From Alphaproteobacteria bacterium (lineage in GTDB: Bacteria > Pseudomonadota > Alphaproteobacteria > SP197), in the NCBI GenBank assembly GCA_965200745.1, contig CBDAUZ010000002.1:287847-351846 (forward strand): 64,000 nucleotides of DNA. The letters are read 5' to 3'. A program made the position numbers and the translations under genes. The notes beneath the pieces were generated by a model. That model worked only from the letters and a program-made list of their open reading frames with translations, was not told where the DNA came from and ran no database searches. Positions 8,667 to 21,357 of the stretch are shown here, piece after piece; position 1 is the stretch's first letter, and each line of letters starts with the position of its first letter.

Positions 8667-8879
8667 AAGCCGAGAGAGTGCCGCTTCTTCATCGGTTCGT
8701 CCCAGCGCCGACGCTCGTCGCCGCGCACAAGACGCACGACGACTTCGGACAAAAACCAGCTTGTCGGGCAGGCAGAGCGTGGTCATGTCCCACCCGTAAC
8801 ACCGCCGAGAAGCAAAAGTCAGCCCTTTTTCGGCGCCTTCGAAAAACAGGCAACCTGCGATCAGCGTGAATCAGCCCTG
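8667..8879. repeat. Copy 1 of an about 210 bp dispersed direct repeat (about 90% identical to 21153-21357). Non-coding, contains a conserved 7-8 bp hairpin at 8825-8846.
   Basis: Direct alignment of the two copies. Indels break any common reading frame. Confidence 0.85.
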
Positions 8880-9051
8880 ATGGTAGGACACCCGCTTCGC
8901 ACCTTGCCTGCTCTATCAGGATATGCGACCGCAGCTATAGAAAGATTATCAAGAGGAGGACCGTGTCGGCTCGGTTGGCGACTCGGGCGAACCTTGACTC
9001 GACAAGCGCGGTCGCGGAAGGTGAATCCGCTGCGGCCAACATGGTGAGGAG

Positions 9052-10140
9052 ATGAATCTAGAACAGACGTTGAGAACGGTGACCACCCGCATTGCTTCGG
9101 GTGATCTAGCGAACGAGGCGCAGGTCAAACACGCCGTCGTATTGCCTGTCCTCCGCGAGTTGGGATGGGATGACAGTGATCCCAGCGTCCTCCGACCAGA
9201 GTATGCGTTAGATACCGGGTTTGTGGACTACGCGCTTCTGGACCGTGGTCGTCCGCTGATTTTCATTGAAGCCAAAAAGGTTGGGGCTTTGAGTGTGGCA
9301 GGCGAAGCGCAGCTCTTCTGGTACGCGACGAACAAGGGTGTACCTGTGCTCATCCTCACGGATGGGAATCTCTGGGACTTCTATCTCAGCATGGCGGCCG
9401 GCCCGCCGGATGAGCGCCGATTCTATCGAATGAATTTCGGGCTTGAACACAAACTTCCCGAGCACATGAATTTTCTTGAGGTGCATCTGCATAGGGAACG
9501 AGTAGTGTCAGGAGAGGCGAGAAAGAATTCCGAACAACTCCATGAAACTAATCGCAAGAAAGATCATGCGTACCGCATAATTACAACGTCCTGGAAGTTG
9601 CTATTGAGCGAACCCGATGAACTGCTCCGCGACTTGCTGATGGAAAAAGTTGAGAGTGAATGTGGGACACGACCGGAACAACAAGACATCGAAGAATTTC
9701 TGAAGGAGTACGCAAACGTGGTTGTCGAAACGCCCACCGCTCCTCGCGCAGTTCGTTCTCGAAAGAAGAGAGATGTGACTCCGGAACCGGCTGTAGGCCG
9801 GAGTGGGAAGTTGGTTGGATTCGTCTACAGGGGAGAAACCAACCATGTTGGAACGGCGATTGGCACCTTGGTTGCAGTTCTAACTGCACTCATGCAGGAT
9901 GACAGTGAATTTATTGAGAGGTTTTCTCACACAACTATCACAAGAGCTCGCAATTTGGTTGCGAAGGATCAGTCTAATCTCTATCGCGCCGCGCACCTTG
10001 CAGACATGGTGAAGAAATTGCCAAACGGGTGGTGGCTGGGATCCAATCTGAGCGAGGAACAAATTCGAAGATACATCGGGGTTGCGTGTGATGTGGCAGG
10101 GGTAAAGTTGGGTGTGCAATTGAAGCTGCTGGAAGAATAA
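9052..10140 (+). CDS. HsdR_N-type (type I restriction R-subunit N-terminal-like) PD-(D/E)XK nuclease domain protein with an uncharacterised C-terminal half
   Basis: N-terminus EAQVKHAVVLPVLRELGWD...VDYALLDRGRPLIFIEAKK matches the HSDR_N/HSDR_N_2 D...EXK core. GAGGAG RBS. GC about 52%, lower than the neighbours. Confidence 0.7.
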   Translation: MNLEQTLRTVTTRIASGDLANEAQVKHAVVLPVLRELGWDDSDPSVLRPEYALDTGFVDYALLDRGRPLIFIEAKKVGALSVAGEAQLFWYATNKGVPVLILTDGNLWDFYLSMAAGPPDERRFYRMNFGLEHKLPEHMNFLEVHLHRERVVSGEARKNSEQLHETNRKKDHAYRIITTSWKLLLSEPDELLRDLLMEKVESECGTRPEQQDIEEFLKEYANVVVETPTAPRAVRSRKKRDVTPEPAVGRSGKLVGFVYRGETNHVGTAIGTLVAVLTALMQDDSEFIERFSHTTITRARNLVAKDQSNLYRAAHLADMVKKLPNGWWLGSNLSEEQIRRYIGVACDVAGVKLGVQLKLLEE

Positions 10141-10423
10141 GCTGTTCTGTCGCGAAACTGGTGGCGTCGCGACGTCCTCTCGCAAAGTCGCCCCTCTACA
10201 GTGTTCGGGCAACCCGGAAGCCGAGGCTGTCGCTGCTGGAGCCTGACGCACCCGCGGCCCGGTTCGGGGAGCGCAGGTCCTCCACGAAGCTGCGCCAGGA
10301 GCCGACGCACACGACGCAGTAGCCACATTCCTCCCTTCCTGCCGCCTTCACCCTTGGCGGCGTCCAGTAACTTCCGTCATCCGGTGCTCCAAGGCAGCTT
10401 CCGTGCCAGCAGTCCGTGGTCTG

Positions 10424-10740
10424 TCACCTACCCATAGTCAACTGCGTCCATGACGAGGTGATTGGGCGTGGATTCCGGTGCATGTGTTCCCGATGGCTGG
10501 CGAAGAGCAGGAAGTCTCGCAGTCCCTTCCAGGCGAGTTGGGTAGCCATCATGGCGGCGAAGCGGCGGCTGTCGGCGTCGGACTCGACCTCCACCAGCGC
10601 GATCTTGCCCAAGGCCGCCAGAGTCAGGCGGCTCAGGCGTCCCGCCTTGACCGCGTCCGTGAATCGCTCCATCGTGGCCGTGTCGAACTGCCGCATGCCA
10701 ATCTGCGTGCGGCAGGGATAGACGGACAAATCCGGCGTGT
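10424..10740 (-). pseudogene. Possible remnant of a Tn3-family transposase C-terminus. Antisense to the upstream extension of the PAPS-reductase-like ORF.
   Basis: Minus-strand peptide RLSRLTLAALGKIALVEVESDADSRRFAAMMATQLAWKGLRDFLLFASH loosely resembles the Tn3 TnpA C-terminal region. Lies in a 600 bp very high-GC stretch between two genes. Confidence 0.25.
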
Positions 10741-20199: not shown

Positions 20200-20217
20200 C
20201 GCTGGCGAAGCCTGCTG

Positions 20218-20917
20218 TCAGGCCATGTAGCCCCCGCAATTGACGGACAGCGTCGATCCTGAGATGAAACCCGCCTCCTCGGCGGCGAGGAAGACGACGC
20301 AGCGGGCTACCTCTCCGGGTTTGCCGCTGCACCCGACGGGAATACCGGAGTCGATCCGCTCCATCACGGCGTCGCTGATATGGGCGATGAGGTCGGAACG
20401 GATATAGCCCGGGCAGATGTAGTTGACCCTGATGCCCTTGCTTGCGTTCTCGAGGTCCAGCGATTTCGTGAAGCCGAGCATGCCGACCTTGGCGGCGGCA
20501 TAGTTCGCGACGCCGAGCATGCCGGAATGCGCGTTGATCGAACTGATGTTGATGATGCGCCCGAAGCGGCGGCTGGGCATGCCGCCTAGAACCGCATGCG
20601 CCATGTTGAAGCAGGACCCGAGATTGACGTCGATCACAGTCTGCCAGTTCTCCGCATTCGTCTTGTGAAGGAATCCGTCCCGGGAAATCCCGGCGTTGTT
20701 CACAAGGATGTCCACAGCGCCGAGCTTCTCCTCGACCTCGGCGACGCCCTGGGCACAGGCCGCATGATCGGCGACGTCCCAGCGGAAGACCGGGATCCCC
20801 GTCCATTCCCTGAACGCTTCCGCCGCTTCGGTGTTGTCGGCGTAGCGGGCGGCCACCTGGTAGCCGGCGTCGCGGCAAGCCGTGGCTTCCGCCGGTTACG
20901 AGTACGACGCGGGTCAT
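20218..20917 (-). pseudogene. phaB: Acetoacetyl-CoA reductase-like SDR (phaB-like). A roughly 35 nt deletion plus frameshift removes the glycine-rich cofactor-binding loop.
   Basis: [10 protein letters not shown] is in one frame (from 20917), then [19 protein letters not shown]...NNAGI...NISS...YAAAK...PGYI continues in another frame. The expected SRGIGAAI segment is missing. Confidence 0.7.
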
Positions 20918-20935
20918 GTGCTGTGCGCTTCCTTG

Positions 20936-21152
20936 TCAGCGCTCGACGCACATGGCGATTCCCATGCCGCCCCCGATGCACAGGGTCGCGAGCCCCTTTC
21001 GCGCGTTGCGTTTGTGCATTTCGAACAGGAGCGTGGTCAAAACACGCGCCCCCGAGGCGCCGATGGCGATGGCGGCGCCATTGACATTAACCCGGTCCGG
21101 TTTGAGGCCGAGACCTTTTTGACGGCGCAGGCCGCGGCCTGCGAAGTAACGG
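20936..21152 (-). pseudogene. phaA: C-terminal remnant (about 70 codons) of acetyl-CoA acetyltransferase (thiolase, phaA-like), with a frameshift and a 3-codon deletion
   Basis: Minus-strand translation gives ...[10 protein letters not shown] (one frame) then [54 protein letters not shown] (next frame). The N-terminal about 320 codons are absent and replaced by the repeat. Confidence 0.75.
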
Positions 21153-21357
21153 AAGCCGAGAGAGTGCCGCTTCTTCATCAGTTCGTCACATCGCCGTCGC
21201 CGCGCACAAGACGCACGACGACTTCGGACAAAGGCAGCTTGTCGGGCAGACAGAGCGTGGTCATGTCCCACCCGAAACACCGCCGAGAAGCAAAAGTCAG
21301 CCCTTTTTCGGCACCTCCGAAAAGCAGGTGCCCTGCGATCAGCGTTAATCAGCCCTG
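21153..21357. repeat. Copy 2 of the about 210 bp dispersed direct repeat, directly abutting the truncated thiolase remnant. Hairpin at 21303-21324.
   Basis: Alignment with 8667-8879. The stem sequence differs from copy 1 (TTTTCGG/CCGAAAA versus TTTTTCG/CGAAAAA) but pairing is kept. Confidence 0.85.

Follow-up and report, generated by a model that had tools for sequence, protein, structure and literature searches.

In experiments with E. coli, circular molecules that carry a partial homologous locus integrated through single crossovers and thereby generated direct duplications of 109-950 bp flanking the insert (PMC3240628). For T6SS and Rhs arrays, insertion of diverged modules by a homologous anchor combined with an illegitimate join has been proposed (PMC5361080). 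Direct repeats are also found as attL/attR of integrase-borne islands, and directly oriented segments bound accessory DNA in IS26-type pseudo-compound transposons and at MITE/REP-type repeats. Long, diverged direct repeats at island borders are easily misread as att sites, IS ends or RNA genes.

Here we analyze a window of 64,000 nucleotides from an uncultured, Rhodospirillales-like bacterium, in which a preliminary description had placed two direct repeats around a 12.5 kb accessory segment. A repeat search and MAFFT alignment confirm these repeats (collectively R, with copies c1 and c2), which bracket about 12.3 kb of accessory DNA (Table 1). We propose, with a probability of about 0.62, that R is an insertion-duplication scar, created by a single crossover or an illegitimate join between diverged alleles in a recombination hotspot.

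The locus is similar to Campbell-type insertion-duplication in that the repeats share their orientation, one copy is continuous with each chromosomal side and no recombinase gene is needed. R (about 210 bp) and a nested duplication in a second strain (about 500 bp) both fall inside the 109-950 bp range (PMC3240628). It differs in that the copies are 7-9% diverged, implying a diverged-allele donor or great age, and in that we infer the circular intermediate and the empty site. With T6SS effector-immunity and Rhs orphan arrays (PMC5361080) it shares a homologous anchor with an illegitimate joint, duplicated stubs (here truncated phaA, mai and the 5' part of an HSDR_N-like gene) and orphan fragments in a hotspot. 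In contrast, classical HFIR is an insertion with deletion, while here a duplication is seen; the anchor is non-coding rather than a conserved gene 5' region, and the cargo is a phosphorothioation-like/PDC-M33-like defence cluster instead of toxin-immunity pairs. As with attL/attR, direct repeats surround compositionally foreign DNA beside core genes, yet integrase and tRNA or conserved-gene target are missing, the inner edge of c2 is a gene-gene fusion, and the repeats are long and diverged throughout, without a short identical core between unrelated arms. The likeness to IS26-type, MITE and REP arrangements lies in the directly oriented segments that bound accessory DNA and in the breaks of short-read assemblies there; unlike these, R is non-coding, lacks terminal inverted repeats, shows no dispersal across the approximately 106 kb examined and was not found outside the population.

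Results

Anatomy and copy number of the repeat

The repeat search returned two co-linear families, 8662-8714/21148-21200 and 8752-8879/21230-21357, each at 91% identity, which merge in the MAFFT alignment into a single unit with sharp edges on both sides. The two copies are identical at 190 of 205 aligned bases (92.7%), with a 7-nt and a 1-nt deletion in c2 and identical tracts of 38, 37, 27 and 24 nt. None of the indels across all copies (7, 7, 1 and 1 nt) has a length divisible by three, consistent with a non-coding R, as the preliminary description had held. When up to three mismatches are allowed, each terminus of R (23-24 nt) occurs exactly twice in the window, always on the plus strand and never in inverted orientation, while 100 shuffles predict 0 occurrences. 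No third copy is detected in the 64 kb by sensitive blastn. All known copies reside at one locus, 2 in the 64 kb and 3 in a 41.6-kb interval of an ENA contig from a divergent strain (hereafter the ENA strain), and all five precede a plus-strand operon by 83 or 172 nt. The presence of two copies explains why short-read assemblies break within R.

Table 1. Features of the repeat locus and its flanks (window coordinates).
Feature	Position	Strand	Remarks
Rieske oxygenase alpha (6917-8245) and beta (6447-6920)	6447-8245	-	Stable left backbone; 99.8% identical between strains
mai 3' remnant	8473-8676	-	Last 57 conserved codons and short tail, stop 8470-8472; continuous with c1
R copy 1 (c1)	8662-8879		218 nt; leftmost ~15 nt (8662-8676) are minus-strand mai codons LSACV
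Spacer	8880-9051	+	172 nt; follows R in every c1-type copy (window c1, ENA c1, ENA c3)
HSDR_N-like (PD-(D/E)xK) gene	9052-10140	+	362 aa; always linked to c1-type R; 52% GC, core-like
Strain-specific defence operon block	10422-17384	+	GC 61%; ENA strain has unrelated 875 nt instead
SspD-like gene	10478-12244	+	Within strain-specific block
DndA/SspA-type cysteine desulfurase	about 12241-13401	+	Within strain-specific block
PDC-M33A/B/C-like genes	13398-17148	+	Within strain-specific block
Block common with ENA strain	17385-20199		DUF3500, cox3 fragment, Phd/PIN
DUF3500 gene	17419-18534	-	Within common block
cox3 C-terminal fragment	about 19140-19240		Within common block
Phd/PIN toxin-antitoxin pair	19504-20199		Within common block
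phaB-like acetoacetyl-CoA reductase	20218-20917	-	Pseudogene; frameshift near codon 12-20 in both strains
Thiolase (phaA) 3' remnant	20936-21145	-	Last ~73 codons, internal 4-codon deletion; fused to c2 inner edge
R copy 2 (c2)	21148-21357		210 nt; leftmost 15 nt read LSA[C>S]V, 14/15 mai nt kept
83-nt leader and SBP_bac_5 gene (21441-23087), opp-type ABC operon	21358-23087	+	Stable right backbone; 99.6% identical between strains

Junctions with the mai and thiolase genes

Read on the minus strand, R passes at its inner edge into the 3' portions of unrelated genes, which are mai for c1 and the thiolase gene phaA for c2; both genes are truncated and not restored. The cut of the thiolase gene at c2 had been noted before, and its remnant indeed ends there. 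The mai gene, of the maleate-isomerase/arylmalonate-decarboxylase (AMDase) family, is left as a remnant upstream of the Rieske operon, identified using tblastn with an intact homolog (L020; E=1.5e-16) and the Pfam Amdase profile. Its homology starts abruptly at LSAC, the position at which every one of 52 phmmer matches begins, and LSACV is the start of the most conserved motif in the family. The c1/c2 homology extends 15 nt into these codons, after which c2 passes into the thiolase gene, fusing thiolase codon ~318 to mai codon ~202 at 21145-21162. Because five mai codons, the first of the remnant, are present in c2, this copy derives from a c1-like junction of mai and R, and does not represent an independent insertion of an element end.

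R was also considered as the upstream part of the mai pseudogene, but this was not supported, as the Pfam and NCBIfam profiles end at or near LSAC. A frameshift-tolerant profile-to-DNA alignment ends at 8676, with a gain from extension into R of 0 as compared to +2.5 for shuffled R. The c2-type frame displays a borderline, non-collinear likeness of 30 codons to mai profile columns 123-152, equalled or surpassed by 3/150 and 0/150 shuffles. This could mean that R is badly decayed mai DNA, which would alter which boundary is native, and part of R may have a remote or rearranged mai origin. No mai signal was detected in the 172-nt spacer or the 83-nt leader, and a reconstructed mai-plus-R protein query yielded 9 candidates only and no match. 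An origin of R from the 5' part of the thiolase gene that adjoins c2, separated from its 3' part by internal deletion, was discarded, with no Thiolase_N signal found; tblastn of R with a PhaA sequence returned noise only.

The enclosed segment and its counterpart in a divergent strain

The defence operon, the DUF3500 gene, the cox3 fragment and the Phd/PIN pair, previously noted as vapBC, are all present between the copies. The GC content is 58-64% throughout 10.2-21.15 kb, compared to 52-57% in the backbone, and the right-hand shift coincides with c2. In the ENA strain, both R copies occupy the same junctions as in the window, and the repeats and the right-hand third (17385-21152) are common to the two strains. 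The stretch 10422-17384 differs, and the ENA strain has extra insertions elsewhere. This does not support the earlier view of the whole 12.5 kb as one accessory unit, since within it the ENA strain differs only in 10422-17384 and possesses the right-hand third. By its sequence the enclosed segment is more aptly described as a mosaic that includes debris (the cox3 fragment, the frameshifted phaB and the truncated phaA), with the putative defence operon as its only strain-specific part.

Divergence between the strains is 0.2-0.4% in the Rieske and SBP genes, as opposed to 5-8% (91-95% identity in the block) across 8246-10421, with the HSDR_N-like gene at 91.6% identity. The window copy of this block is 97.4% identical to the ENA copy on the side of c3, a third, partial R, versus 95.2% to its positional counterpart on the c1 side. 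The jump in divergence and the closer match to the c3-side copy indicate that diverged alleles have recombined into the block, at the same magnitude as the divergence between c1 and c2. The third R, which has its own 7-nt deletion and 1-nt insertion, is part of a diverged direct duplication of about 500 bp around a different, unrelated insert of 1.85 kb. The duplicated unit comprises R positions 45-213, the spacer and the first 162 nt of the HSDR_N-like gene; its copies differ by 4.8%, and one junction lies inside a gene. It thus constitutes a second case of the same topology at this locus, nested in the first.

The available material covers two strain types of the uncultured organism and eight samples. 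Both R copies are present in 8/8 samples, and no deletion or empty-site contig was found among them. In every strain and sample c1 is continuous with the mai remnant and the Rieske genes, and c2 with SBP; the differences between c1-type and c2-type R are fixed in both strains. Neither an empty site, with a single R between the mai remnant and the 83 nt before SBP, nor a donor with intact phaA was found in the genome and metagenome collections searched. In the closest relatives (79% identity for SBP, 82-84% for Rieske), R is absent and the Rieske and SBP genes are not adjacent, and searches for other contexts of the island proteins returned only the same sample series.

Tests for a mobile element, an attachment site and a structured RNA

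Among the ORFs between and beside the copies, Pfam, NCBIfam and PADLOC reveal no transposase (DDE, HUH, serine or tyrosine) and no integrase, and no tRNA or tmRNA was found in the 64 kb, in agreement with the preliminary description. Inverted repeats of at least 40 nt are absent, and R has no inverted termini. R gave no blastn match in plasmid and phage collections, and exact 22-23-mers of R are absent from GTDB, JGI and IMG/VR. Three large searches of protein collections with R-derived queries, one of them a concatenated 12-frame query aimed at spurious ORF calls (E<=1), returned no match. Whether R is an IS terminus already described or a gene leader of wide occurrence, the two cases that the preliminary description had named as contrary to its view, was examined, and neither was found in the sequences and collections searched. 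A further reading, in which R would be an IS end that holds the beginning of a DUF4338/DruA-type (Tn5-like) transposase gene, was rejected, the indel-corrected minus-strand ORF (39 residues) not being recognised. In a search of a tiny database, this ORF was identical at 15/37 positions to the beginning of the DruA domain from an ENA-strain IS; for the DUF4338-like peptide, Pfam gave nothing at E<=10 and a word-indexed search no match. The ends of this Tn5-like IS match R only loosely. Under integron attC criteria, no fold better than shuffles was obtained on either strand, and no IntI integrase was detected.

The hairpin reported earlier is present, at 8824-8844 and 21302-21322, but the pairing-preserving stem changes ascribed to it are not, as the differences are one-sided (U-A to U-G, G-U to G-C). 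Its pairs comprise 6 invariant and 2 one-sided ones, with 0/8 compensatory, and 391/500 shuffles fold as well. In an alifold prediction of R, 0/56 pairs are compensatory and the covariation term is +1.06 (5 sequences in about 3 lineages, giving low power). Folding z-scores of -1.4 and -0.3 are no better than shuffles. Rfam contains no match to R, at gathering threshold or at E<=1, and no sigma-70-like promoter or terminator was found in R. The suggestion of a structured element is consequently not borne out, and overall R does not resemble the end of a mobile element, an att site or a structured RNA.

Discussion

We propose that the locus arose through the following mechanism. R would not be an independent element but originally about 200 bp of local non-coding DNA and 15 nt of the neighbouring mai pseudogene, situated on the edge of an accessory region prone to recombination. 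It would have been duplicated when accessory DNA was recombined in. The donor, likely a diverged lineage of the same species, would have carried the mai remnant, R, the spacer, the HSDR_N-like gene, cargo, phaB and part of phaA in this order, and the recipient chromosome the mai remnant, R, 83 nt and the SBP operon. Integration may have taken place in the Campbell manner, by one homologous crossover between the chromosome and a circularised fragment, or through a topologically equivalent unequal or illegitimate exchange. Either way, one R would end up continuous with the left backbone (c1 into mai) and the other with the right backbone (c2 into SBP). The illegitimate joint of phaA codon ~318 to mai codon ~202 would form the present inner edge of c2, and the 7-9% divergence between c1 and c2 would reflect that between donor and recipient alleles. 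We infer in what order the events took place, that the intermediate was circular and that R is the native upstream region of the SBP operon. The proposal builds on the repeat, both junctions, the mai codons in c2, the allele mosaicism, the second, nested example and the absence of mobile-element or RNA hallmarks. Direct repeats that are each continuous with one flank, and a novel joint of unrelated sequences at one inner edge, are the marks of such a scar, and both are observed. The preliminary description was correct as to the general class, a repeat-associated insertion or rearrangement and not a classical integrative element. The causal direction it favored, with repeats mediating the event, would be reversed here: the evidence fits repeats that are the product of the insertion, by local duplication, rather than a pre-existing family that mediated it.

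An origin in situ, which we regard as unlikely, would start from an unequal or illegitimate exchange between sister chromosomes that tandem-duplicated the stretch from R to truncated phaA, through a join between phaA codon ~318 and the position 15 nt to the left of R. Later, the second copy would be deleted between the outer edge of R and the 83 nt that precede SBP, and the R copies would diverge in place. This reproduces the observed junctions exactly, down to the mai codons in c2, and the fixation of the c1- and c2-type differences in both strains would make the duplication older than the strain split. However, two large events are needed, the second an unconstrained deletion, and 7-9% neutral divergence would have to accumulate in place while the backbone differs between strains by only 0.2-0.4%; nor does it make use of the diverged-allele import demonstrated at the locus. 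It is quite improbable that R instead represents one end (~200 bp) of an unrecognised mobile element, either non-autonomous or dependent on mobilisation in trans, with that end having landed beside, or deleted into, two genes (mai and phaA) and c2 being a solo end from which the rest was lost. That the same R edge adjoins two different truncated genes, that all three c1-type copies of R are linked to the spacer and to the HSDR_N-like gene with its nuclease fold, and that the outer R end loosely resembles the IR of the Tn5-like IS in the ENA strain are compatible with this idea, as are assembly breaks inside R, although the latter are accounted for by the two copies. It is contradicted by the five mai codons in c2, which derive from the c1 junction, by the lack of inverted termini and of a transposase, integrase or HUH gene between the copies, and by the absence of any other R copy in 64 kb plus 41.6 kb and of R from plasmid, phage, viral, GTDB and JGI collections, and the notion of a DUF4338 transposase N-terminus failed in Pfam and homology searches.

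We attach similarly little credence to R as a plus-strand cis element (promoter, operator or leader) duplicated before the HSDR_N-like/defence and SBP/opp operons, or as a small RNA gene. The constant placement of the five copies, 83 or 172 nt ahead of plus-strand operons, and the invariant blocks of 24-38 nt agree with such a function, and the SBP promoter is probably situated within R and the 83 nt, because the DNA to the left of c2 is foreign and oriented on the other strand. Yet neither a sigma-70-like promoter or terminator nor an Rfam match (E<=1) is found in R, its fold is no better than shuffles and devoid of covariation, and indels of 7, 7, 1 and 1 nt are tolerated. As a cis element would explain the retention of R and not the anatomy of the junctions, this function is compatible with the insertion-duplication scar rather than an alternative to it. 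Finally, and very improbably, R, which in c1-type copies always comes with the 172-nt spacer and the HSDR_N-like gene, might be the site recognised or entered by a cassette-capture system that is so far undescribed, works independently of a recombinase and stacks defence modules head-to-tail upstream of opp; each of the three ENA copies of R would then mark one in a series of captures, carried out by the fast-evolving protein with the nuclease fold.

Excision through recombination between c1 and c2, envisaged in the preliminary description for the whole island, is possible in principle, given the identical tracts in R, but the eight samples contain no deletion contig.

In conclusion, the feature is real but fairly ordinary. 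The locus represents a documented defence-gene hotspot that is remodelled without a dedicated recombinase, with at least two nested insertion-duplications and strain-specific cargo. RecA-dependent recombination between the repeats could still remove the 12.3 kb, and within the population the defence operon may therefore be unstable.

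Direct duplication around a mosaic segment

The most plausible reading of the pair of approximately 210-bp direct repeats, R, is that of a scar left by recombination in a hotspot of defence genes. A repeat search of the window returned two co-linear direct-repeat families (8662-8714/21148-21200 and 8752-8879/21230-21357), which merge in the MAFFT alignment into a single unit of 218 nt in copy 1 and 210 nt in copy 2, with indels of 7 and 1 nt, confirming the repeat of the preliminary description. Similarity drops sharply at both edges in the same alignment; 190 of 205 aligned positions are identical, and the longest identical tracts measure 38, 37, 27 and 24 nt. 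The 64 kb contain exactly two occurrences of each R terminus, both on the plus strand (three mismatches or fewer; 0 expected), and no weaker copies were found within the window. R is genuine, a non-coding direct duplication on either side of a mosaic accessory region.

Features of the locus and nucleotide identity to the ENA strain
Feature	Position	Strand	Remark	Identity (%)
trpD, trpC			left backbone, before Rieske genes	
Rieske oxygenase beta and alpha genes	6447-8245	-	left backbone	99.8
Interval before copy 1	8246-8666			93.1
R copy 1	8662-8879			96.1
R position 45 to 9213	R45-9213		versus ENA copy 1 side; copy 3 side	95.2; 97.4
HSDR_N-like PD-(D/E)xK gene	9052-10140		first gene between copies	
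Interval	9214-10421			91.6
Weakly SspD-like protein			after HSDR_N-like gene, between copies	
DndA/SspA-type cysteine desulfurase			after SspD-like protein; PADLOC 5e-141	
Three proteins resembling candidate system PDC-M33A/B/C			after desulfurase; M33A 9e-35; last one carries DUF6339	
Interval	17385-21152			97.8-98.3
DUF3500		-	after PDC-M33-like proteins, between copies	
Equivalents of the ENA-strain insertions in L001 1-7698	18144-18150 and 19138-19147			
cox3 C-terminal fragment (21 residues)	about 19140-19240	+		
Phd/PIN pair			between cox3 fragment and phaB	
phaB-type reductase	20218-20917	-	frameshifted near N-terminus	
Thiolase, last ~73-79 codons		-	terminates at copy 2	
R copy 2	21148-21357			98.0
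83 nt, then SBP_bac_5/opp-type ABC operon			right backbone	99.6 (SBP)
1.85-kb insert region, ENA strain	L104 6209-7572 (ERZ25068043 ctg12151)			

The backbone has a GC content of 52-57% and the HSDR_N-like gene one of 52%, against 58-64% between 10.2 and 21.15 kb. The phaB frameshift is common to both strains, the ENA strain carrying a second one, and high-GC gene debris of foreign origin makes up the right third of the segment. The operon at 10422-17384 (SspD-like protein, cysteine desulfurase and proteins resembling the candidate defence system PDC-M33), found in the window as well as in the Logan strains, may represent a variant of PDC-M33 linked to phosphorothioation. The HSDR_N-like gene is without a sequence relative in the PDB. 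Elsewhere in the window, a 46-nt direct repeat (34063-34108 and 35132-35177; 74% identity, spaced 1069 nt) is probably a conserved motif of two paralogous genes.

Junctions with mai and thiolase

On the minus strand, copy 1 runs unbroken into the last 57 codons of mai, a gene of the maleate-isomerase/arylmalonate-decarboxylase family, and copy 2 runs into the 3' end of the thiolase gene; two unrelated genes are therefore joined by their 3' ends to the same R edge. The mai remnant gives weak matches to the Pfam Amdase and NCBIfam EutA/arylmalonate-decarboxylase profiles, and the intact homologue of a marine relative (L020, 1574-2353) matches the remnant of the window (E = 1.5e-16) as well as that of the ENA strain (E = 1.3e-21). 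In that relative the gene is clustered with FAA-hydrolase, TRAP transporter and Rieske genes. As mai is truncated here before the Rieske operon, the upstream part of the catabolic cluster has been lost in the window organism.

In an exhaustive phmmer search, all 52 matches begin at the same residue, LSAC. That R is itself the upstream part of mai is not supported, as a frameshift-tolerant profile-to-DNA alignment ends exactly at LSAC and extension from the flank into R brings zero score gain, below shuffled R; the mai/R junction is therefore a true breakpoint. R-only DNA gave a borderline, non-collinear 30-codon match to the mai profile, in copy 2-type sequences only. The homology between the copies spans five mai codons, LSACV (CTC TCG GCT TGC GTT in copy 1, CTC TCG GCT TCC GTT in copy 2). 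Since LSACV opens the most conserved motif of the family, a chance origin is negligible. Copy 2 must therefore have been copied from sequence already carrying the mai/R junction, rather than arising from an element end inserted independently.

Related strains and a nested duplication

The source organism is uncultured, the nearest species-level genome being a Rhodospirillales MAG (SBP 79% identical). Exact-protein look-ups yielded strain contigs from seven short-read runs (SRR33960549-54, SRR33991076) and a 96-kb contig of a divergent strain, the ENA strain (ERZ25068043 ctg12151). The short-read contigs stop within copy 1 or copy 2, as expected for a sequence with at least two copies. Two ENA-strain loci, L104 and L001, share an identical overlap of 543 bases and together span its whole Rieske-to-SBP interval, with both R copies present and junctions as in the window. 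Window positions 10422-17384 are absent, with an unrelated 875 nt (136-aa ORF) instead. The earlier proposal of a repeat-associated rearrangement distinct from a classical island stands, but not that of an island behaving as a single unit.

A third R in the ENA strain is left-truncated (positions ~45-213); after it come the same spacer and an HSDR_N-like gene that is complete. This third copy is an arm of a ~500-bp diverged direct duplication (R45-213, spacer and gene nt 1-162) enclosing a 1.85-kb insert found in this strain only. The insert codes for two proteins, one of 74 aa (Zn_ribbon_IS1595-like) and one of 380 aa (RNase_T (DEDDh)-like), and its left junction interrupts the HSDR_N-like gene behind nt 162 (window 9213). 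In the same strain, the right part of the segment harbors additional IS and Mu-like insertions (L001 1-7698). The Mu-like element (rve/Mu-transpos_C, Toprim) splits DUF3500, alongside a small inverted duplication, and a DDE_Tnp_1 IS is also present. A 2.3-kb IS (inverted repeats of 22 bp, target duplication of 10 bp) encodes a 740-aa transposase, in which DruA/DUF4338 is fused to a Tn5-like DNA-binding and DDE domain.

Identity between the strains changes sharply along the locus. From this profile, copy 2 moves together with the stable SBP backbone, and copy 1 forms part of a block (mai remnant, R, spacer and HSDR_N-like gene) of alleles recombined in from lineages 5-9% apart, the same magnitude as the divergence between copies 1 and 2. 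The HSDR_N-like gene, 91.6% identical between strains as compared to 99.6-99.8% for flanking core genes, is either fast-evolving or an exchanged allele.

Nature and origin of the repeat

Within the sequences examined, R shows the traits of neither a dispersed repeat nor a structured RNA. Searches of PLSDB plasmids and INPHARED phages returned no blastn match, and exact 22-23-mers of R were found in none of the GTDB species genomes, JGI metagenomes or IMG/VR. The outcome that would have refuted the preliminary description, R being the terminus of a known IS or a widespread leader, was looked for and did not emerge. An IS or transposon end is contradicted by the lack of a transposase and of inverted termini and by the non-independence of copy 2, and an att pair by the lack of a recombinase and of a tRNA (none found by ARAGORN) or restored gene, with divergence spread throughout R. 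An integron attC was likewise rejected, and neither a sigma-70 promoter nor an intrinsic terminator was found in R. Rfam gave nothing, also in a permissive scan inside R; single-sequence folding is no better than for shuffles (z = -1.39 and -0.33), and RNAalifold on four copies predicts 56 pairs with 0 compensatory changes and a positive covariation term. The hairpin proposed previously retains six invariant pairs of eight, two changed on one side and none compensatory, resembling shuffles. The hint of a structured element is therefore unsupported, with five sequences providing little power.

The simplest history explaining all junctions is a single-crossover insertion-duplication. The recipient chromosome would have carried Rieske genes, mai remnant, R (which we infer to be the native upstream region of the SBP operon), 83 nt and SBP, and donor DNA of a diverged lineage the mai remnant, R, spacer, HSDR_N-like gene, cargo, phaB and phaA. 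A donor fragment with one end 15 nt to the left of R and the other at phaA codon ~318 would have been circularised by an illegitimate join, and this presumed intermediate would then have integrated through a single homologous crossover within R; an equivalent unequal or illegitimate exchange would give the same product. In the order of events that we infer, this product, i.e. R (copy 1), cargo, truncated phaA joined to 15 nt of mai, R (copy 2) and SBP, corresponds to the arrangement seen. The ~500-bp duplication around the RNase_T module in the ENA strain represents another such event. A tandem duplication in situ with a later deletion gives the same structure and remains a rival. As precedents for the insertion-duplication, single-crossover products with 109-950-bp duplications of the homologous segment predominated among the recombinants of a conjugation study in E. 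coli (PMC3240628), and for T6SS and Rhs arrays displacement by an anchor plus illegitimate join has been put forward (PMC5361080).

In conclusion, R is probably a further instance of an already known kind of event, and the cargo operon and the dynamics of the hotspot are of more interest than R itself.
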